64,000 bases of DNA, from NCBI RefSeq assembly GCF_946477935.1, contig NZ_CAMLAC010000002.1, positions 378 to 64,377 of the forward strand. The letters run 5' to 3'. Within the stretch, counting starts at the first letter, position 1, and every line of letters begins with the position of its first letter. Under the pieces are notes generated by a model. That model was not told where the DNA came from and did no database searches. It saw only the letters and a list, made by a program, of their open reading frames with translations. This document shows, piece by piece, positions 36,393 through 59,752 of the stretch. Position numbers and translations under genes: made by a program. The DNA comes from an uncultured Sphingomonas sp. Lineage in GTDB: Bacteria; Pseudomonadota; Alphaproteobacteria; Sphingomonadales; Sphingomonadaceae.

Positions 36393-36447
36393 TATGCGTC
36401 ACGCATATAGACAAGCCCCTACCGCCAAACTATATGCGTCGCGCATA
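36393..36447. promoter_or_regulatory. Two TATGCG-N3-CGCATA palindromes (36393-36407, 36433-36447) between divergent osmC-hydrolase and lysR
   Basis: Exact arms, 40 bp apart. Confidence 0.8.
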
Positions 36448-36517: not shown

Positions 36518-37393
36518 ATGGAACTCAATCAGGTCAGCTATTTCATAAACTTGGCTGCGACGCTGAACTTTACCGAGGCAGCTCGGCTGAGTGGCGTATC
36601 GCAGCCAAGCCTGACCCGCGCTATCCGCCGACTAGAAGAGGAACTAGGCGGTGCGCTGATCTATCGGGACGGAAAGAACAGCCGCCTCACCGGACTGGGC
36701 CAGGATGTCGAAGCGGAGTTCCGGCGAATGCTCTTCGCCCTGAAAAGCGTGCGCGATCATTCCGAGAACTGGACGATGGGGCGGCACCGGGTGCTGGACA
36801 TCGCCGTGGCGCCAACCGTCAGTCCCAAAGCGTTTGGGACCTTCTTCGAAGGTGCCCTGGATAAGGTGCCCTCAATCGAGATCAGGCTGCACTCGCTCCA
36901 GTCGAGCGAGGACACGTCGGAAGTGTTATCAGGCAAATATCACGCTTGTATCCTGCCGCGGGAAATCCGCCCGGACCGTAAGCTCGATATCCGTCCTCTC
37001 TTTCGAGAGCGCTTTGTACTCGCCTGCGCGGTCGAGCACCCATTGGCGAACGCAGATATTGTGCGCGGTGAGGACTTGTCGAGATATCCGGTCGTCGATC
37101 GACTCAAATGCGAGTTTCGTGACCAGATAGTGGAACACTTTGCGCGGCGCGACGTGGTCATGCGCCCACGCTTCCGTTCCGAGCGAGAAGACTGGGTTCA
37201 TCGAATCGTCGCCGAAGGTCGCGCGATATGCATCTTGCCGGAGCGATCGGCGGCAGACACTGGTCTCGTAACTCGACCGATCGAAGGTTTCACCTTGGAA
37301 CGAGAAGTGGTGATCGCGACTGTTTCCGGTTCGACGGCTCCGGTCGAGATCCGGAAGGTAGCGCAACTCGCGGCCCGACACGAATGGCAGTGA
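36518..37393 (+). CDS. LysR-family regulator, OxyR-like Cys198
   Basis: MELNQVSYF...NFTEAA...SQPSLTRAIRRLEEELG; effector domain DRLKCEFRDQ with Cys at residue 198. Confidence 0.9.
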   Translation: MELNQVSYFINLAATLNFTEAARLSGVSQPSLTRAIRRLEEELGGALIYRDGKNSRLTGLGQDVEAEFRRMLFALKSVRDHSENWTMGRHRVLDIAVAPTVSPKAFGTFFEGALDKVPSIEIRLHSLQSSEDTSEVLSGKYHACILPREIRPDRKLDIRPLFRERFVLACAVEHPLANADIVRGEDLSRYPVVDRLKCEFRDQIVEHFARRDVVMRPRFRSEREDWVHRIVAEGRAICILPERSAADTGLVTRPIEGFTLEREVVIATVSGSTAPVEIRKVAQLAARHEWQ

Positions 37394-37411: not shown

Positions 37412-37441
37412 GCTATGGAAACTATGCTCACAGCGTATTGG
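37412..37441 (+). promoter_or_regulatory. 30-bp LysR/OxyR-like box upstream of msrB-msrA-gst
   Basis: GCTATGGAAACTATGCTCACAGCGTATTGG. Confidence 0.7.
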
Positions 37442-37540
37442 ATAAGTGACGTCGCCACTGCGATAGTCGATGTGACGACAGATCAGTCAAGCTGAACTCA
37501 GTGCGCCCGGCCCTCTAAACTTAGTATTGGAGATCGAATC

Positions 37541-37984
37541 ATGAAGTTCGAGAAGACACAGGCGGCTATTGACCGCCTCACCCCAGAGCAACGTCGCATT
37601 ACCCAGGAACACGGCACCGAGCGGGCGTTCACGGGTGAATATAACGACAACAAGGAGCCGGGCATTTACGTCGATGTCGTCTCGGGCGAGCCGCTTTTCG
37701 CGTCGACCGATAAGTTCGAATCTCGCTCCGGCTGGCCGAGTTTCACCAAGCCAATCGTCCCGGCGCATATCAACGAGGTGCGAGACAGCTCGCACGGGAT
37801 GGTCCGGACGGAAGTTCGGTCGGTGCACGGTGACAGCCATCTCGGCCACGTGTTTCCGGACGGTCCGTCCGACCGCGGCGGCCTGCGCTACTGCATCAAC
37901 TCGGCAGCGCTCCGCTTCATCCCGCGCGATGAGATGGAGGCGGAAGGCTACGGCGAATATCTCGACCAGGTAGAGGAGGCTTAA
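37541..37984 (+). CDS. msrB: Peptide-methionine (R)-S-oxide reductase
   Basis: GTERAF, GWPSF, HLGHVF.DGP, RYCINS; single Cys. Confidence 0.95.
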
Positions 37985-37985
37985 C

Positions 37986-38525
37986 ATGCAACAGCGCGCT
38001 GTTCTCGCTGGCGGCTGCTTTTGGGGCATGCAGGATCTGATCCGCAAGAAACCCGGCATCATCTCGACCCGCGTGGGCTATACCGGCGGCGACGTCCCCA
38101 ATGCCACCTATCGCAATCATGGCACCCACGCCGAGGGCATCGAAATCATCTTCGACCCCGAGGTGACGAGCTATCGAAACATCCTGGAATACTTTTTCCA
38201 GATCCACGATCCGACCACGAAGGACCGTCAGGGCAACGATCGCGGTCTCTCCTACCGGTCAGGCATCTACTACGTCGACGAGGAGCAGAAGCGCATCGCC
38301 GAAGATACGATCGCCGACGTGGATGCATCGGGGTTGTGGAACGGCAAGGTCGTCACCGAGGTCAAGCCCGTGGGCGATTTCTGGGAGGCCGAGCCGGAGC
38401 ATCAGGACTATCTCGAGAAGCGTCCGGGTGGCTACACCTGTCACTTCGAGCGAAAGGACTGGGTGCTTCCGAAGCGCCAGGATGCCGGCGGTTCGCAAGC
38501 TGCGGTCGCTGCACGAGCTGAATAG
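37986..38525 (+). CDS. msrA: Peptide-methionine (S)-S-oxide reductase, copy 2
   Basis: [39 protein letters not shown]. Confidence 0.95.
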
Positions 38526-42905: not shown

Positions 42906-43886
42906 TCACTGCGGCATCTCGACATGTCCGCCGAAGCCGAAGCGCATCGCCGAAAGCAGTTTATCACCGAAGGTATGTTCGACGCGGCTCCTGTAACGCG
43001 CATACAACGCGGCCGAGAGGACGTTGACCGGCACCGCTTCCTCCATCGCCGCCTCGATCGTCCATCGGCCCTCGCCTGAGTCGGAGACATGGCCCGAGAA
43101 CTGCTCGAGCATCTGATCCCGCGCGAGCGCAGCGGCCGACAGGTCTAGCAGCCAGGACGAGATCACGCTGCCGCGACGCCACACCTCGGCGACATCGGTG
43201 AGGTTGATGTCGAACCGCTCGTCTTCGGGCAGTTTCGCCGACGACCGACCCTTGAGTATGTCGAAGCCTTCAGCATAGGCCTGCATGAGCCCGTACTCGA
43301 TGCCGTTATGGACCATCTTCACGAAATGGCCCGCCCCGGCCGACCCTGCGTGGATGTAGCCCTTCTCCGCGCGCGGGTCGTGGCCGTCGCGGCGATCGAC
43401 TGTGCGCGGTATCGTTCCCAGACCCGGCGCGAGAGCAGAGAAAATGGGATCGAGATGATCGATCACCGGCTTTTCACCGCCGATCATCATGCAGTAGCCG
43501 CGATCAAGCCCCCACACCCCGCCCGACGTCCCGACATCGACAAAGTGGACGCCGCGCTCCGCGAGATCCTTGGCGCGATGGATATCGTCCTTGTAGAAGG
43601 CGTTGCCGCCATCAATGATGATATCGCCCGGCGCAGCGAGGTCGGCGATCGCGGCGATCATCGCCTCGGTCGGCTTGCCGGCCGGCAGCATCACCCAGTA
43701 GATCGCCGGCTTGTCGAGCTTGCTGCGCATGTCGGCCAGCCCCGAGGCACCTACCGCTCCTTCTCGCACGAGCTCGGCAACAGGCTCGGGCGAGCGGTTG
43801 TAGACTATGGTGTCATGGCCGTGCCGGATCAGCCGCCGGGCTATGTTTGCACCCATGCGGCCGAGCCCAATGATGCCGATCTTCAT
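42906..43886 (-). CDS. gnd: Decarboxylating 6-phosphogluconate dehydrogenase (short type)
   Basis: [49 protein letters not shown]. Confidence 0.95.
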
Positions 43887-43962
43887 TTTCTTCTCCGCCT
43901 TGCAACACATTGTGGTGAAGTTGGCCGCATCGATTTTGCGATATCGGCGCGCCCTTCCGGTT

Positions 43963-44454: not shown

Positions 44455-44928
44455 TCAAGCCCGTTCCAGGTGCGCCACCAGCTTGTCCGCATCGAGGTGG
44501 AAGTCCGAGAATATGACCGCCCCGCTGGAGTTTATGACGCTGAACCAAGGCGTGCCCCGTGTCCGGTAATCCTCCATGAATGTGGGAAGGCGCGCGCCAT
44601 GCGGAGCAGGATCATGGCCGAAGACGACTGGCAGCTCGTACTTTAACTGGTTCGTCCGCAGCTTCTCGAAGGTGTTTTCGTGCTCGCCCTCGAACACCGT
44701 CTGGATCACCGCAAAGCCGACACCCTTGGTTGCTAGGGCGGCGTGGAGCCGCTGCAACGTGGGGAAGCCGTGCAGGTGGCAACCGCGACACCAGTGCTGA
44801 AACGCAAAGAGGATCTTCGGTCCTGATCCCAGCTGAGAGAGCGTAACTGGAACGTCCAGCTCCTTGCCGTCCCCGCCGATCCATTGCATCACCCGAAGCT
44901 CAGGGGCTGATTGCTCGGGAGCGGCCAC
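44455..44928 (-). CDS. Thioredoxin-fold redoxin (AhpC/TlpA-like)
   Basis: AFQHWCRGCHLHGFP (CxxC), GTPW cis-Pro motif. Confidence 0.8.
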   Translation of the reverse strand: MAAPEQSAPELRVMQWIGGDGKELDVPVTLSQLGSGPKILFAFQHWCRGCHLHGFPTLQRLHAALATKGVGFAVIQTVFEGEHENTFEKLRTNQLKYELPVVFGHDPAPHGARLPTFMEDYRTRGTPWFSVINSSGAVIFSDFHLDADKLVAHLERA

Positions 44929-45109
44929 TGTGTCTCTCCTCCTCAGTTATGCCGTTCGACATCCAGGATCACTTTTTCCAGACCACAGCGGGCGAGCCTG
45001 CCGGGCCTTCGCTGATGTTCTGCCTGCTCTCCGGGATCATGACCGCACCTTAAGCAGCCTTCGATGCCGATCCGGGCGTCGACACTATGAAGTTTGCGCT
45101 TTCTGTTTT

Positions 45110-45139
45110 CCAATAGCGGTAGGCTATAGTTTCAATAGC
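45110..45139 (-). promoter_or_regulatory. 30-bp LysR/OxyR-like box in the divergent redoxin / thioredoxin-fusion intergenic region
   Basis: Minus strand GCTATTGAAACTATAGCCTACCGCTATTGG; plus strand shows ATAG-N7-CTAT-N7-ATAG. Confidence 0.75.
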
Positions 45140-45244: not shown

Positions 45245-46168
45245 ATGACAAACACTCGAGTTTCACATCGCGAGCATCGTGAGCTCGGCGACGTCGCATG
45301 GCTGCGCGACTACGATCACGCGACGGCGCTCGCGGCCGCTCAGGGCAAGCCCGTGTTGCTGCTATTTCAGGAAGTTCCGGGGTGCGCGACCTGCGTGCAC
45401 TTCGGGCAGGACGTTTTGACGCATCCTTTGATGGTGGAGCTGATCGCCGAGCGGTTCGTGCCGGTGGCGATCTTCAACAATCATCCCGGTGCTGATGCCA
45501 GGATAATGCGGCTCTATGGCGAGCGCTCCTGGAACAACCCGGTCATGCGCTTCCTTCGGTCGGACGGAACCGAGCTTTTGCCCCGTCTGGCGGATCGCTA
45601 CGATCCGCTCGCCCTTCATGAGAAGCTCAGCGCCGCTCTGGAAGCGCTCGGTGGCGACGTGCCGGCCTATTTCCGCCTATTGGGGCGTGATCTGCTCATC
45701 GAGCATGGCTTGAGCGAGGGGGGCGTCTACACGACGCCGTGCTTCTGGTCGGGGGAGACGAGCCTCGCTCAACATCCCGCCGTTATCACAACCGATGCGG
45801 GTTGGGTGGATGGCGAAGAAGCTGTGCAGGTACAGTTTGACCCGCGCGCCGTCAGCCGGGCTGACCTGAACACCTACGCCCATGCAGAGGGCTTCGCATC
45901 GGTGGCGCATGGCATCTTCCGCCTAGACCGCGAACCGCAATTCTACCTGCGCAAGAACGCCGTCCGCCATCTGCCGCTGTCGGCGGCGCAGCGAACTCGG
46001 ATCAACTTGGCCGTACCGTATCGCAATCCGATCCCTGACTTGCTCAGCCCGCAGCAGTCCGCTTGGCTTGCAGATCCGCTACTGCAGCGCGTGAGCGACG
46101 GAGAGACCTACCGCCAAGACATTCGCGATAGCTGGCCGGTGCTAAAGACGCAGCTCGGTTCCGCATGA
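45245..46168 (+). CDS. Thioredoxin-like (VPGCxxC) domain fused to an MsrA-like domain
   Basis: VLLLFQEVPGCATC...SWNNPV (VPGUxxT-type thioredoxin family, Cys form), then PCFWSGE...VITTDAGW..GEEAVQVQFDP resembling MsrA GCFWG.E...V.ST.VGY...EAVEV.FDP. Confidence 0.75.
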   Translation: MTNTRVSHREHRELGDVAWLRDYDHATALAAAQGKPVLLLFQEVPGCATCVHFGQDVLTHPLMVELIAERFVPVAIFNNHPGADARIMRLYGERSWNNPVMRFLRSDGTELLPRLADRYDPLALHEKLSAALEALGGDVPAYFRLLGRDLLIEHGLSEGGVYTTPCFWSGETSLAQHPAVITTDAGWVDGEEAVQVQFDPRAVSRADLNTYAHAEGFASVAHGIFRLDREPQFYLRKNAVRHLPLSAAQRTRINLAVPYRNPIPDLLSPQQSAWLADPLLQRVSDGETYRQDIRDSWPVLKTQLGSA

Positions 46169-46334: not shown

Positions 46335-46364
46335 GCTATTGAAACTATAGTCACAGGGCATTGG
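46335..46364 (+). promoter_or_regulatory. 30-bp LysR/OxyR-like box upstream of the Mo-oxidoreductase operon
   Basis: GCTATTGAAACTATAGTCACAGGGCATTGG. Confidence 0.75.
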
Positions 46365-46569
46365 GAAAGGGCGCTCTTCCGAAGTTATAGTCAACACGTT
46401 GTCGCCACGAATCGTGACGAACGAAGTCATGTCTATACCGACAGAGCTTCAGGCACCTAGGTTTCAGAAAGTTTATCTTCGTTTCGATCCGCATGCGTAA
46501 GTCTTGTGACGCAGGGGAGTAAGCTGAAGACTAGGCCGGGGCTGTCGCGACGAACAAGGGGAGTCCGGC

Positions 46570-47175
46570 ATGGTCACCAGAGGTTTTACCGGTCGCGGAT
46601 CGGGCAGCGACCAGTCCGGCCGGATCCCGCCTGGCCAGCATCTCGTTGAGAATTTTCCGGTTCTGACCGCCGGACCGACCCCGGACCTCGATACCGCGAA
46701 ATGGAATTTCACGGTCAAGATCGGGCCGAAGCCCGTCAAGGTCTGGAACTGGAGCCAGTTCAACGCTCTGCCTCAAACCAGGGTGAAGAAGGACATTCAC
46801 TGCGTCACGTCCTGGTCCAAGCTGGATACGGCATGGGACGGCGTACTCATCGAGGACATCCTCGCAGACGCCGGGCTCGAGCACCCCACCGATTTCGTCC
46901 TCGTGCATTCGTACGACGGTTACTCGACGAACGTGCCGCTGGCGGATTTGCTTTCGGACAAGGCGATGGTCGCGCTCAAATATGCCGGGCAGCCGCTTCC
47001 GCGCGATCATGGCGGCCCAGCGCGCCTGCTCGTGCCGCACCTGTACTTCTGGAAGTCGGCCAAGTGGGTGAAAGCGCTGCAGTTCACGACGCGCGACGAA
47101 GCCGGCTTCTGGGAACTTCGCGGCTATCACATCTACGGCGATCCGTGGCGCGAGCAGCGATACACTCATGACTGA
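46570..47175 (+). CDS. Sulfite-oxidase-like molybdopterin oxidoreductase, no export signal
   Basis: RIPPGQ, DIHCVTSWS (Mo-ligand Cys), DGYSTNVPL, HGGPARLLVPHLYFWKSAKW. Confidence 0.88.
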   Translation: MVTRGFTGRGSGSDQSGRIPPGQHLVENFPVLTAGPTPDLDTAKWNFTVKIGPKPVKVWNWSQFNALPQTRVKKDIHCVTSWSKLDTAWDGVLIEDILADAGLEHPTDFVLVHSYDGYSTNVPLADLLSDKAMVALKYAGQPLPRDHGGPARLLVPHLYFWKSAKWVKALQFTTRDEAGFWELRGYHIYGDPWREQRYTHD

Positions 47176-47914
47176 AGGCGCCGTGCAGGCAGCGCCGTGG
47201 CAGAAGGCCGTGATTGACCAGGTCGTCCAACAGACCCCGGCCATCAAAAGCTTCTTCTTCCGGCTGCGCACGCCTTTCACCCATGTGGCGGGTCAGCACG
47301 TCGATGTGCGCCTGACGGCGCCTAACGGCTACACGGCGATGCGCAGCTATTCGATTGCCTCACCGACCAGCGATGCAGGGGTCCTTGAGCTCGCCATCGA
47401 ACGCTTGCCCGACGGGGAGGTATCCCCCTTCTTTCACGACGTCGCAGCGGTCGGTGACGAGATCGAACTTCGCGGCCCACTCGGCGGGCACTTCCTCTGG
47501 CCGGGGCAGGGAGCCGAGCCGATCCTTCTGATCGGAGCAGGCTCTGGTCTGGTCCCGCTGATGGCCATGATCCGGCAGCGCCGTGAGATGGCACAGACTG
47601 TTCCGACAGCGCTGCTCCTGTCAGCCCGCACGGCGCGCGACGTCCTGTTCTCGGACGAGCTGCTGGCCATCGAACTGGATGATCCCGCCTTCGTGCTGAC
47701 GCTGGCGATCACGCGTGAAGCTCCGAAGCGTGCGACAGACTTCGCGCGGCGGATCGATAGCACGGTCGTCCAGGAGGTGGTCAGTCGGCTTCCCCGCACG
47801 CCTGCCCACGTCTTCGTCTGCGGGTCGAACGGCTTCGTGAACATAGCGGCCGATGGCGCACTGCTCGCCGGTCTGGACGCCGCGGCAATCAAGACCGAGC
47901 GATACGGTGGATAA
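47168..47914 (+). CDS. FNR-like FAD/NAD(P)H oxidoreductase
   Basis: RSYSIAS, GEVS, GPLG.F, IGAGSGLVP, FVCGSNGFV; overlaps the Mo-enzyme stop. Confidence 0.9.
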   Translation: MTEGAVQAAPWQKAVIDQVVQQTPAIKSFFFRLRTPFTHVAGQHVDVRLTAPNGYTAMRSYSIASPTSDAGVLELAIERLPDGEVSPFFHDVAAVGDEIELRGPLGGHFLWPGQGAEPILLIGAGSGLVPLMAMIRQRREMAQTVPTALLLSARTARDVLFSDELLAIELDDPAFVLTLAITREAPKRATDFARRIDSTVVQEVVSRLPRTPAHVFVCGSNGFVNIAADGALLAGLDAAAIKTERYGG

Positions 47915-47986: not shown

Positions 47987-49006
47987 ATGACGGTCGTCGC
48001 GCGCCAGTTTCATCTCAGGGCCCGTCCGGAAGGGCTACCCGCGTCTGACAACTTCGAGCTCGTCGAACGATCGCTTCCGGCTCCGCACAGCGGGCAGGTT
48101 CTCGTCCGCAATCTGTGGCTCTCAGTCGACCCCTACATGCGCGGAAGGATGACCGGCCGCGAAAGCTACATCCCGCCGTTTGAGATAGGCGAGCCCCTGG
48201 ATGGGGCCGCGATCGGCGTCGTTGTCGAAAGCGACGACACCGGCCTAAGGCCGGGCGATGTCGTCAGCCACTTCGCCGGGTGGCGTGACTATGCGGTCGT
48301 CGACGCTACTTCTGCCACCAAGATCGATCCTGCGATCCCGGAGCAAGCCTATCTCGGGCCGCTCGGGTTCCCCGGCTTCGCCGCTTATATCGGCCTCCTG
48401 CGGATCGGAAAGCCGCAATCAGGCGAAACCGTCTTCGTCTCCGCCGCAGCCGGCTCGGTCGGTTCGCTCGCCGTCCAGATCGCAAAGATCAAGGGATGCC
48501 GGGTCGTGGCCTCCGCCGGCTCAGAGGAAAAGCTTCGCTGGCTACGCGATGAGGCGGGCGTCGATGCCACGATCAATTACAAGGAGGCGGGGGACATGTC
48601 GGCGGCGCTCGACACGGCAGCACCAGAAGGCATCGACATCTATTTCGACAATGTCGGCGGGACCCATCTCGAGGCAGCGCTGAGCGCCGCGAACGACTTC
48701 GCCCGCTTCGCACTGTGCGGAATGATCGACCAATATAACAGCGAGCCGTCCGGCCCCCGCAACATCTACGCCGCGATCGAGAAAAGCATCCTGCTGCAGG
48801 GCTTCATCACGATCCACAACATGTCCGTGTGGGAGGACTTCCAGCGCGACGTCGCGCGATGGATTCTGGACGGCGAGATCAAATGGCAGGAGACCGTGCT
48901 GCACGGCCTCGAGAGCACGCCAGCGGCTTTCCTCGACCTCTTTGCGGGAAAGAACATCGGCAAGATGGTGGTCGACCTGCGCGACGATCCACAGGGAGGA
49001 TCGTGA
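47987..49006 (+). CDS. NADP-dependent alkenal/prostaglandin reductase-like oxidoreductase (CurA-like MDR)
   Basis: WLSVDPYMRGRM, VSAAAGSVGS, YFDNVGG, LCGMIDQYN, GKNIGKMVV. Confidence 0.9.
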   Translation: MTVVARQFHLRARPEGLPASDNFELVERSLPAPHSGQVLVRNLWLSVDPYMRGRMTGRESYIPPFEIGEPLDGAAIGVVVESDDTGLRPGDVVSHFAGWRDYAVVDATSATKIDPAIPEQAYLGPLGFPGFAAYIGLLRIGKPQSGETVFVSAAAGSVGSLAVQIAKIKGCRVVASAGSEEKLRWLRDEAGVDATINYKEAGDMSAALDTAAPEGIDIYFDNVGGTHLEAALSAANDFARFALCGMIDQYNSEPSGPRNIYAAIEKSILLQGFITIHNMSVWEDFQRDVARWILDGEIKWQETVLHGLESTPAAFLDLFAGKNIGKMVVDLRDDPQGGS

Positions 49007-49085: not shown

Positions 49086-50351
49086 ATGAGCCGCTTCGCC
49101 GAACCCGTCTTTGTGGCCGCCGGCCTTCGGACACCATTTGGCCGCGGAGGCGGAGCGCTGGCGGCATACGACACGGTTTCGTTATCCGTACCAGTGGTGC
49201 AGGCGATGGCCGAGCATGCGAAGCCCGACCTGGTCGTCTGGGGAACCGTGATCCCGAACCTTGGCTGGAGCAATATTGCCCGCGAGGTCTGGCTCGATGC
49301 CAAGCTTAATCCGAATGTGCCGGCATTCTCCGTCGTTCTGGCGTGCTCGACCAGCATGACAGCAACCTTCGCAGCGGCGGGCATGCTCGGCGGCGGGACT
49401 GACCTGACGCTCGTCGGCGGCGGCGAGGTCATGAGCCGGCCATCGCTGGCCTTGACCCCAGAATCATCGAAGCGGCTCACGGATCTTTTCGCGAAAGATC
49501 CCGCCGCCGCGCTGGCTGCGCTGCAGGCGCTTACGCCGCGCGACTATGTCCTACCGACCAAGGGGTGGGCCAACCGCATCACCGGCAGAACCATGGGCGA
49601 TCATATGGAGGAGACGGCCAAGGCCTGGTCCATCTCCCGCGAAGCCCAGGACGATTGGGCGCTCAAAAGCCACCAGCGCGCAGTCGCCGGCTGGAATGCC
49701 GGCTTTTTCGATGATCTCGTGATCCCGCTGACCGAGCTGAAGCGCGACGCTAACCCGCGCTCAGACACGTCCGCCGAGCGGCTCGCCGCCCTGAAGCCTG
49801 CCTTCGATCGAGACAGCGGCTTCGGAACCCTGACGGCCGGCAACAGCTCGCCGATCACCGATGGCGCGGCCGCCTGCTGGGTCGCCAATGCGGTTGGCGT
49901 GGCAAAGCTACCGTCCGATACGCCATATGTCCGGTTGGTCGACTACGAGGTGTCAGCGGTCGACCTTCACAACGAGGGTCTGCTGATGGCCCCGTCCTAT
50001 GGCATCCCGCGCCTGCTTGCACGGCATGGACTCAGCTACCCGGACATTGCTCTTTGGGAAATCCACGAAGCTTTCGCCGCCCAGGTGCTGGCGAACGTCG
50101 CGGCTATCACCGACCGTGACTGGGTCCGCACGAAGGCGGGTGTCGACCAAGACATGGGCCAGTTCGACTGGGACCGCGTCAACCCAAATGGCGGCTCGGT
50201 GGCGATCGGGCATCCGTTCGGCGCCACCGGCGCCCGCGACCTCAGCCAGGCGGTGAAGGAGCTGTGGGCGCAGCCGGTGGGATCACGCGCGATCGTCAGC
50301 ATCTGCGCCGATGGCGGGCAGGGGACCGTCGCGCTTCTCGAGCGCGTGTGA
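49086..50351 (+). CDS. Thiolase (acetyl-CoA C-acyltransferase)
   Basis: RTPFG, LACSTS (Cys), HEAFAAQ, GHPFGATG, SICADGG. Confidence 0.92.
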   Translation: MSRFAEPVFVAAGLRTPFGRGGGALAAYDTVSLSVPVVQAMAEHAKPDLVVWGTVIPNLGWSNIAREVWLDAKLNPNVPAFSVVLACSTSMTATFAAAGMLGGGTDLTLVGGGEVMSRPSLALTPESSKRLTDLFAKDPAAALAALQALTPRDYVLPTKGWANRITGRTMGDHMEETAKAWSISREAQDDWALKSHQRAVAGWNAGFFDDLVIPLTELKRDANPRSDTSAERLAALKPAFDRDSGFGTLTAGNSSPITDGAAACWVANAVGVAKLPSDTPYVRLVDYEVSAVDLHNEGLLMAPSYGIPRLLARHGLSYPDIALWEIHEAFAAQVLANVAAITDRDWVRTKAGVDQDMGQFDWDRVNPNGGSVAIGHPFGATGARDLSQAVKELWAQPVGSRAIVSICADGGQGTVALLERV

Positions 50352-59126: not shown

Positions 59127-59156
59127 GCTATCGAAACTATAGCTGCCGGTTATTGG
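59127..59156 (+). promoter_or_regulatory. 30-bp LysR/OxyR-like box upstream of dps
   Basis: GCTATCGAAACTATAGCTGCCGGTTATTGG. Confidence 0.75.
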
Positions 59157-59251
59157 ACATCGATCCAAGCCAAACTCATTCTGTCGGCCTCAGCGGCCGA
59201 AGGGGAATCGATGCCGGCTCCTGTGAAAGCCACCATTCAGGGAGTCTATCG

Positions 59252-59752
59252 ATGACCAACGCCAGTACTGCGCCAGTTGCAACTCCCACCGACCTCGACG
59301 AGTCTGCTACGATGACCGTAGCCGATGCGCTCAAGATCATTCTGGCGAACAGCTATGCGGTATATCTCAAGACCAAGAATTTTCACTGGCACGTCTCCGG
59401 GCCATATTTCCGTGACTATCACCTCCTGCTCGATGAACAGGCGGCCGAGATCCTCGCGGTCACGGATGCTATCGCCGAGCGTGCCAGGAAGACTGGCAAT
59501 CGCACGCTAACATCGATCGGTGACATCGCACGCCACCAGACCATCAAGGACAACGACGCCGAATTTGTAACTCCGCAGGAGATGCTGGGCGAGTTAAGGG
59601 CCGACAATTTGCACATGGTGGAAGCGTTCCGGCGCGCGAAGGAGGTCGCGGACGAGGCGAAGGATAACGCCACCTCTGGCCTCATCGATGCATGGACTGA
59701 TGAAGCCGAACGCCGCGCATGGTTCCTTTTCGAAGCCAGCCGGCCCGGCTGA
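59252..59752 (+). CDS. dps: Dps-family ferritin-like DNA protection protein
   Basis: KTKNFHWHVSGPYFRDYHLLLDEQ...DAIAER ferroxidase signature. Confidence 0.93.
   Translation: MTNASTAPVATPTDLDESATMTVADALKIILANSYAVYLKTKNFHWHVSGPYFRDYHLLLDEQAAEILAVTDAIAERARKTGNRTLTSIGDIARHQTIKDNDAEFVTPQEMLGELRADNLHMVEAFRRAKEVADEAKDNATSGLIDAWTDEAERRAWFLFEASRPG

Follow-up and report, generated by a model that had tools for sequence, protein, structure and literature searches.

Several described molybdenum (Mo) enzyme systems resemble the gene pair analyzed here. In MsrP-MsrQ (YedYZ) of Escherichia coli, the flavin reductase Fre is the upstream electron donor; in mARC/cytochrome b5/b5 reductase and in E. coli YcbX-CysJ, a small, cytoplasm-facing molybdenum cofactor (Moco) reductase that detoxifies oxidized compounds is fed by an NAD(P)H flavoprotein; and eukaryotic nitrate reductase combines a Mo domain, cytochrome b5, and a flavin adenine dinucleotide (FAD)/NADH module. 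The pair in question lies in a 64,000-nucleotide stretch of an uncultured Sphingomonas sp. (contig NZ_CAMLAC010000002.1, positions 378 to 64,377; referred to below as the window) and encodes P0001, a minimal protein of the sulfite oxidase (SUOX) fold, and P0002, an FNR-type FAD/NAD(P)H reductase. The reading that we favor from sequence and predicted structure, at a probability of roughly 55%, is that the two proteins form an NAD(P)H-driven reductase of an oxidized sulfur or nitrogen compound under oxidative-stress control; within it, methionine sulfoxide (MetO) itself is a tentative assignment for the substrate.

MsrP-MsrQ provides both the closest solved structure and the closest profile match to P0001, and the window pair is alike in a SUOX fold without the dimerization domain, a short C-V-x-x-W-S cysteine loop, and msrA/msrB as genomic company, whereas it differs in having no Tat signal, no MsrQ in the genome, and a soluble FAD protein instead. 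Eukaryotic nitrate reductase shares the SUOX Mo domain and an NAD(P)H module of the FNR superfamily, the two also being joined in bacterial single-chain fusions, but the window pair is without its heme b5 domain, dimerization domain, and anion-binding Arg. mARC and YcbX-CysJ follow the same logic as the window pair; however, their fold is MOSC and not PF00174, and they interpose a heme or 2Fe-2S center, neither of which is encoded in the window pair. To our knowledge, no SUOX-fold system with a dedicated, soluble, heme-free FNR-type partner has been characterized, and a direct path from flavin to Mo is undocumented for SUOX-fold enzymes.

P0001 also resembles the cytoplasmic single-domain group of the sulfite oxidase (SO) family, whose members have about 200 aa, PF00174 only, no signal, the same motifs, and an FNR-type gene directly 3'; the two-gene layout is the same on annotated plasmids, and nothing structural differs. 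What sets the window copy apart is its mobile clade, its stress-regulon box, and the lack of a third gene encoding DUF6510. This branch is, as far as we know, the one part of the SO family without an assigned activity. In NCBI its genes are named “sulfite oxidase-like oxidoreductase” and “ferredoxin reductase,” DR_0716 of Deinococcus being an example. The group, which PMC7759655 attributes to Workun 2008 and Kappler 2008, is called uncharacterized there, and a 2022 review asks whether Deinococcus DR_0716 is a cytoplasmic MetO reductase (PMC8945050). The genes already have NCBI names and Pfam assignments, and the MetO idea has been published; new here are the quantified obligate pairing, the natural fusion count, the residue-level comparison with MsrP and SO, and a putative four-promoter regulon in the window.

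A signal-less Mo protein and its FNR-type partner

P0001 matches PF00174 (Oxidored_molyb) with 127.6 bits against a cut-off of 24, over profile positions 2 to 169 of 169, and has no other Pfam match. Its N terminus is polar (MVTRGFTGRGSGSDQSGRIPPGQ) and without a hydrophobic stretch, and no Sec or Tat signal was found in the protein; the match and the polar N terminus bear out the signal-less SUOX-fold protein of the original prediction. The overlapping FAD/NAD(P)H reductase gene that had been named alongside it is likewise confirmed, as the two reading frames share 8 nt (ATGACTGA) and P0002 contains PF00970 (FAD_binding_6; 52 bits) and PF00175 (NAD_binding_1; 46 bits), with no other Pfam match. 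Both domains and both motifs, MRSYS (RxYS) and GAGSGLVP (GxGxxP), place P0002 in the FNR-like flavoprotein superfamily. In a PDB sequence search, its best matches are the FAD/NAD domain of MmoC, flavohemoglobin, and BenC reductases; the closest named family models are the reductase modules of MmoC, flavohemoglobin, GbcB, PaaE, and BenC, with scores far below the cut-off in every case. P0001 and P0002 each have a single Cys (Cys78 in P0001), and Pfam detects no Fe-S or heme domain in either.

The absence of an MsrQ-like gene, also part of the original prediction, extends to the whole genome, since PF01794 has no match in the window or in the host assembly, which is 96.5% complete. This assembly encodes MoeA and four other PF00174 proteins (SorA-like, SorT-like, SoxC, and a 488-aa protein), none of its proteins scoring as MsrP above the cut-off. 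Bona fide MsrP is found in 0 of 13 genomes of the genus, the host included, and in all eight other genera sampled in the order. The 488-aa protein (G000:C41; L009:526-1992) is genus-wide and has a C-terminal MsrP-like Mo domain (84 bits, under the cut-off), preceded by an N-terminal extension of about 320 residues without a family match.

In order to describe the family, loci were collected by a pattern scan with one genome per species, which gave at least 600 matches, and 80 loci were kept; they cover Proteobacteria, Actinomycetota, Chloroflexota, Gemmatimonadota, Dormibacterota, Acidobacteriota, Bacteroidota, and Firmicutes. A co-directional P0002 homologue starts 0 to 180 nt 3' of the Mo gene in 78 of these loci, and the identities of Mo protein and reductase to the window pair covary (r = 0.94 in 73 loci), relatedness alone contributing to this value. 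Clustering of the flanking open reading frames (ORFs) in the 80 loci revealed no other neighbor family in more than about 15 of them; as antisense ORFs added noise to the greedy clustering where loci were GC-rich, targeted tblastn and hidden Markov model searches took its place. Moreover, of 120 listed homologues with more than 352 aa, about 54 combine PF00174 with PF00970 and/or PF00175 in a single chain. In these fusions, the Mo domain passes straight into the reductase N terminus, and both FNR motifs of P0002 are kept. One fusion comes from a complete Capillimicrobium genome, and one fusion cluster is represented on 36 contigs. The adjacency and the natural fusions together argue for a dedicated pair: on this genomic evidence, the pairing is functional and not a matter of local chance, and the FAD protein probably feeds electrons to the Mo protein.

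One fusion was modeled with a pLDDT of 88 and a pTM of 0.85. In Foldseek, no solved structure covers both halves of the model (TMq of at most 0.49), the best PDB matches aligning the reductase half only, and no heme domain was found in the fusions or in either gene of the pair. The reductase half resembles cytochrome b5 reductases as well as 1cnf and 5yly, FAD fragments of nitrate reductase, and the Mo half matches Pichia nitrate reductase (2bih/2bii; Foldseek E values of 6e-10 to 1e-9). In composition, a SUOX-type Mo domain plus FAD/NAD(P)H amounts to eukaryotic nitrate reductase minus the heme. These likenesses, together with the chromosomal members that have no Msr context, favor a rival assignment in which the pair reduces N-oxides, N-hydroxy compounds, or oxyanions (N-hydroxylated bases, hydroxylamines, N-oxides, nitrate/nitrite, chlorate) rather than S-oxides, making it a pared-down bacterial equivalent of mARC/cytochrome b5 reductase or eukaryotic nitrate reductase. 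We consider this assignment unlikely: the anion-binding Arg common to SO and nitrate reductase is missing, MsrP outscores SO-type enzymes against the family profile, nitrate/nitrite transport or assimilation genes were not found in the island or in the 80 loci, and the regulon partners described below are msrBA, dps, and thiol-redox genes.

A third gene accompanies part of the family. DUF6510, a four-Cys protein of about 90 aa (CxxCG ... RCxxC), is encoded 3' of the reductase in 35 of the 80 loci, none of them proteobacterial; in some cases the two are fused (PF20120 in P0171, P0202, and P0214). The window has no DUF6510 gene. The protein may function in maturation or as a rubredoxin-like carrier.

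Fold and predicted active site of P0001

The structure of P0001 was predicted with AF2 from a 30-sequence family alignment (pLDDT of 91.5), with residues 1 to 12, directly ahead of the fold, disordered. The top Foldseek matches are E. coli YedY/MsrP (1xdq, 1xdy), with a TMq of 0.67 and about 20% identity; sulfite dehydrogenases, sulfite oxidases, SoxC, and the nitrate reductase Mo fragment rank lower, and PruR is far behind. A PDB sequence search with P0001 alone returned just partial C-terminal matches to SO enzymes, and the family profile was needed to place MsrP closest: with the profile, YedY is the best match in the PDB (E value of 1e-18), and among proteins of the host and its relatives, MsrP scores 58 to 73 bits versus 39 to 52 bits for SorA-, SorT-, and SoxC-type enzymes. 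In the profile alignment, Cys78 (DIHCVTSWSK) is located opposite the Mo ligand Cys102 of YedY (MRCVEAWSMV), and the Cys loop aligns with that of YedY without gaps, whereas SO-type enzymes carry an insertion of 13 to 16 residues there. Cys78, which hardly varies across 30 family members and not at all across 30 fusions, is the predicted Mo ligand, and P0001 is predicted to carry Mo-molybdopterin. The family motifs in P0001 are PPGQ, D(I/F)HCVTxWSK, HGGPxR, WKSAKW, and GFWExxGY. A further motif, (S/T)RGFxGR(R) ... PPGQ, occupies residues 1 to 23 (46570 to 46640); it is conserved, disordered in the model, and kept in fusions, and it is not a Tat motif, because no hydrophobic region follows. This segment may serve for docking or as a lid.

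The distant PruR matches bear on whether the pair is an enzyme at all. PruR pterin-binding proteins occur among both the structural relatives (Foldseek ranks 39 to 45) and the profile relatives of P0001, which would fit a SUOX-fold protein that binds a pterin as a sensor or carrier, or a reductase that serves another acceptor next to a merely genomic neighbor. Such a noncatalytic or Mo-free role is very improbable: the Mo-ligand Cys and the Moco-binding motifs HGGPxR and WKSAKW are invariant or nearly so in the 30 diverse members, the PruR matches (E value of 1e-6, TMq of 0.5) are far weaker than those to catalytic enzymes, and the recurrent covalent fusion with the reductase argues for electron transfer between the two.

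The closeness to MsrP has limits. P0001 scores 37.3 bits against the curated MsrP model NF003767 (cut-off of 207), the position of YedY Glu104 is occupied by Thr, and about 15 residues that form an insertion specific to MsrP are missing; because of these three differences and the lack of a Tat signal, P0001 is, by all the features compared, not an MsrP. The SO-type models give 42.5 bits for SoxC (cut-off of 420), 30.7 bits for SorT (570), and 24.4 bits for SorA (600). The Arg of the SO “RNH” motif aligns with Leu32 of P0001, the “CAGNRR” loop is absent, and the protein stops after the Mo domain, without the C-terminal dimerization domain that brings the third sulfite-binding Arg; since none of these elements is present, P0001 is not a sulfite oxidase as far as its residues can tell. 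The active-site Tyr of SO-type enzymes is kept as Tyr186, aligned with SorA Tyr236 and chicken SO Tyr322, and a nearly invariant Lys84 lies six residues past the Cys ligand.

The retained Tyr186 is one of the points in favor of a cytoplasmic sulfite dehydrogenase, in which sulfite from oxidized cysteine or sulfonates would be detoxified by oxidation at Mo and the electrons would pass via FAD to NAD(P)+. The direction is thermodynamically possible, the potentials of sulfate/sulfite and NAD+ being about –0.52 V and –0.32 V, respectively, and a SulP anion transporter gene is found near the pair on an IncX5 plasmid, although it belongs to a separate transposon cargo block. In a transcriptome study, the Gordonia member, a “sulfite oxidase-like oxidoreductase,” was upregulated along with cysteine dioxygenase when sulfonates supplied the sulfur (PMC7661421), which leaves room for a role in sulfite handling. 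However, two of the three sulfite-binding Arg residues are absent and the third belongs to a domain that P0001 lacks, the SorA, SorT, and SoxC scores of 24 to 43 bits fall far short of cut-offs of 420 to 600, and the host already has enzymes of all three types. In addition, FNR modules of the P0002 type normally deliver electrons from NAD(P)H, and the family models that P0002 matches are all of the reductase type. Sulfite oxidation is therefore judged improbable.

Promoter boxes suggest an oxidative-stress regulon

The LysR-type box that the original prediction placed at the operon is present as CTATTGAAACTATAG at 46336 to 46350, a CTAT-N7-ATAG element with the T-N11-A dyad, and it recurs in the window. 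The extended element, G-CTAT-N7-ATAG-N7-nTAT-TGG, has four copies in the window (Table 1), and YTAT-N7-ATAG gives 7 strand-hits at 4 places versus 0.31 expected by chance. The box is conserved 5' of the Mo gene in S. paucimobilis, E. coli IncX5, Acinetobacter, Aeromonas, Vreelandella, and Hyphomicrobiaceae loci, and the degenerate copy on the msrB side is also found in S. paucimobilis locus L002 at 1299. OxyR-type sites consist of ATAG-N7-CTAT repeats in an 11-bp register; the three in-register half-sites of the element (CTAT-N7-ATAG-N7-nTAT) resemble the OxyR consensus, three of whose four half-sites are in register at four promoters, that of dps included. The box shared by the Mo-reductase operon, msrB-msrA, the redoxin-like/VPGUxxT gene pair, and dps suggests that these genes form an oxidative-stress regulon.

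The LysR-family regulator of the island is a candidate binder of the box. It was rejected as an OxyR equivalog, scoring 75 bits against an OxyR model cut-off of 329, and as a universal binder, being present among the other plasmids inspected only in S. paucimobilis; because it is missing from the rest, a host factor may bind the box instead. Another regulatory site considered was the MarR operator of the neighboring oxidant island (TATGCG-N3-CGCATA); its closest good copies end at 36447, far from the Mo operon, which is therefore not part of the MarR regulon. Scans for sigma-70 promoters and terminators between 44.8 and 49.2 kb yielded nothing above shuffled sequences.

A mobile clade in a plasmid-borne island

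By megablast, the Mo-reductase module was found on 109 plasmid records at about 75 to 82% nucleotide identity, from Acinetobacter (28 records), Klebsiella (27), Pseudomonas (24), Enterobacter, Aeromonas, Citrobacter, and others, hospital and wastewater plasmids among them, and it neighbors carbapenemase and integron cargo there. On these plasmids, a divergent gene for a 73%-identical redoxin-like protein accompanies the pair, and grxC and a DUF427 gene lie 3' of it; msrB-msrA-GST-CorA is located a few kilobases 5' on Acinetobacter and Aeromonas plasmids, msrB-msrA being in the same island on Sphingomonas, Acinetobacter, and Aeromonas plasmids. On an Aeromonas caviae plasmid (L094:20215-25407), a TnAs1 transposase gene is located some 3 kb from the island, and some 7 kb separate the island from a class 1 integron that carries blaOXA-732, aac(6')-Ia, aadA2, qacEdelta1, and sul1.

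The family comprises 331 clusters at 50% identity with E values of at most 1e-30, and at the same threshold, a homologue is found in 43 of the 201 genomes sampled from the class of the host. Most of these homologues, like the chromosomal alphaproteobacterial members, are just 42 to 50% identical, whereas members of the mobile clade are 70 to 95% identical across plasmids; because of this distance, the window copy is assigned by sequence identity to a distinct mobile clade.

The pair itself sits in a plasmid-borne island that is syntenic with an S. paucimobilis plasmid. The order is LysR, msrB, msrA, GST, CorA, two unknown genes, MFS (–), DM13 (–), the CxxC redoxin-like gene (–), VPGUxxT, Mo, reductase, thiolase, NADP oxidoreductase, GAF-HWE kinase plus response regulator, DipZ, grxC, DUF427, and argS. 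The product of the redoxin-like gene, P0245, has no Pfam or NCBIfam match; on gammaproteobacterial and clinical plasmids, its counterpart is the direct divergent neighbor of the Mo gene, and the box lies in their common intergenic region. A redoxin-Mo fusion, P0148, was considered as a Rosetta-stone link for P0245 and rejected, its redoxin half being unrelated to P0245.

The window has two genes that the S. paucimobilis plasmid lacks: one for a CurA-like NADPH enone reductase, directly 3' of the flavoprotein gene (47987 to 49006), and a 6-phosphogluconate-dehydrogenase-like gene beside the MFS gene (42906 to 43910, minus strand). A thiolase-family gene recurs directly 3' of the pair in the mobile clade (49086 to 50351 in the window; L002:10634-11899; L094:13439-14704; also L010 and L015), an odd companion in an oxidant-defense island.

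Two metagenome contigs have the reductase gene 3' of an MsrA-Mo read-through or fusion (L003:6001-7164, 387 aa; L004:6001-7086, 361 aa). The MsrA domain is complete in both; the two are 91% identical and represent one lineage, the linker is poorly conserved, and msrA itself is split in L004. A gene for a 609-aa pyridine-nucleotide-disulfide oxidoreductase lies 5' of the fusion in L003, with a 4-nt overlap.

Table 1. Coordinates of the Mo-reductase pair, the promoter boxes, and associated genes (window positions unless a locus is named)
Feature	Position	Strand	Remarks
Mo-enzyme gene (P0001, 201 aa)	46570..47175	+	Minimal SUOX-fold protein, signal-less; PF00174, E 4.6e-37
FNR-type FAD/NAD(P)H reductase gene (P0002, 248 aa)	47168..47914	+	PF00970 + PF00175
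Extended operator-like box, GCTATTGAAACTATAG-TCACAGG-GCATTGG	46336..46372	+	234 nt 5' of Mo start
Weaker second half-box, GAAGTTATAGTCA	46381..46393	+	40 nt 3' of first box
Box copy	45102..45138	-	Between divergent redoxin-like and VPGUxxT genes
Degenerate box copy, CTATGGAAACTATGC-TCACAGC-GTATTGG	37413..37449	+	23 nt past LysR stop, ~90 nt 5' of msrB
Box copy, CTATCGAAACTATAG-CTGCCGG-TTATTGG	59128..59164	+	~90 nt 5' of dps
LysR-family regulator, candidate box binder	36518..37393	+	PF00126 + PF03466; 89% identical to S. paucimobilis plasmid LysR
msrB-msrA	37541..38525	+	tblastn 94.6% and 92% identity to annotated S. paucimobilis plasmid MsrB and MsrA
CxxC (HWCRGCH) redoxin-like gene (P0245, 157 aa)	44455..44928	-	73% identical to WP_003464979, E. 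coli pKPC-bca9
VPGUxxT type-2 thioredoxin-like protein (Cys form)	45245..46168	+	Immediately 5' of pair; NF041383, 328 bits, cut-off 275
dps, ferritin-like, 166 aa, putative regulon member	59252..59752	+	PF00210, E 4.8e-22
DUF6510 examples	L035-L088, e.g., L050:9324-9590, L080:9333-9677; L095:6793-7056		

Proposed mechanism and substrate

In the mechanism that we propose, both genes would encode one soluble two-component molybdoenzyme. The 248-aa flavoprotein would take the hydride of NAD(P)H onto FAD, and the electrons would go directly to the molybdopterin center of the 201-aa subunit, with Mo held by Cys78, the locus having no gene for a heme or Fe-S carrier; the Mo subunit would then reduce an oxidized small molecule or protein side chain in the cytoplasm. 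The operon would be one member of a regulon with LysR/OxyR-type boxes that also contains msrB-msrA, dps, and the two thioredoxin-fold genes. Direct transfer from FAD to Mo, the reductive direction, the regulator, and the substrate are what we infer here.

S-oxides would be the likeliest substrate class, given the apparent oxidative-stress regulon marked by the box that the operon shares with msrBA and dps, the closeness to MsrP, the loss of the Arg residues common to SO and nitrate reductase, and the two msrA-Mo contigs; free or protein-bound MetO would be the leading candidate. If MetO is turned over, the pair would provide thiol-independent repair. In its most specific form, the proposal is a thiol-independent, NAD(P)H-driven cytoplasmic reductase of MetO or other S-oxides with direct flavin-to-Mo transfer, induced together with msrBA and dps via an OxyR-like box and spread on broad-host-range plasmids among hospital and wastewater bacteria as part of a survival kit against oxidants and disinfectants; as a whole, this is possible but rather doubtful.

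The original prediction had described the pair as a possible cytosolic analogue of MsrPQ. That it is a dedicated cytoplasmic pair stands, given the adjacency in 78 of 80 loci, the fusions, the lack of MsrQ, MsrP as the closest solved relative, and the oxidative-stress context with its box. “Analogue” is a fair term, whereas a homologous system would be a misfit, P0001 reaching 37 of the 207 bits of NF003767.

Several observations weigh against an S-oxide reductase of this kind. In the 80-locus set, no msrA, redoxin, or VPGUxxT gene was found within 8 kb of the pair outside the mobile clade; the 60-odd chromosomal loci have no msr gene nearby, and the link to MetO repair is confined to the mobile proteobacterial clade and the one lineage of MsrA fusions. 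Because this context is missing elsewhere, the substrate of the family as a whole need not be MetO. The MsrA-Mo fusions may themselves be artefacts of frameshift or assembly, though the adjacency of msrA and the Mo gene is real. At the predicted active site, Lys84 and Tyr186 may leave room for an anionic substrate. DUF6510 may act as an electron carrier that is missing here, which would weaken the proposal of direct transfer from FAD to Mo. Finally, the literature searched contained no biochemical or functional study of any family member.

Significance

With a plain FNR-type flavoprotein recognized as the obligate partner, the system can be tested directly from the two proteins in purified form plus NAD(P)H. 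Should an S-oxide prove to be the substrate, the pair would constitute a repair route that spares the thioredoxin/glutathione pool when cells are stressed by oxidants or chlorine. More than 100 plasmids from Acinetobacter, Klebsiella, Pseudomonas, and Aeromonas carry the module along with msrBA, grxC, and dps, and it would therefore be relevant to the persistence of these bacteria in disinfected environments.

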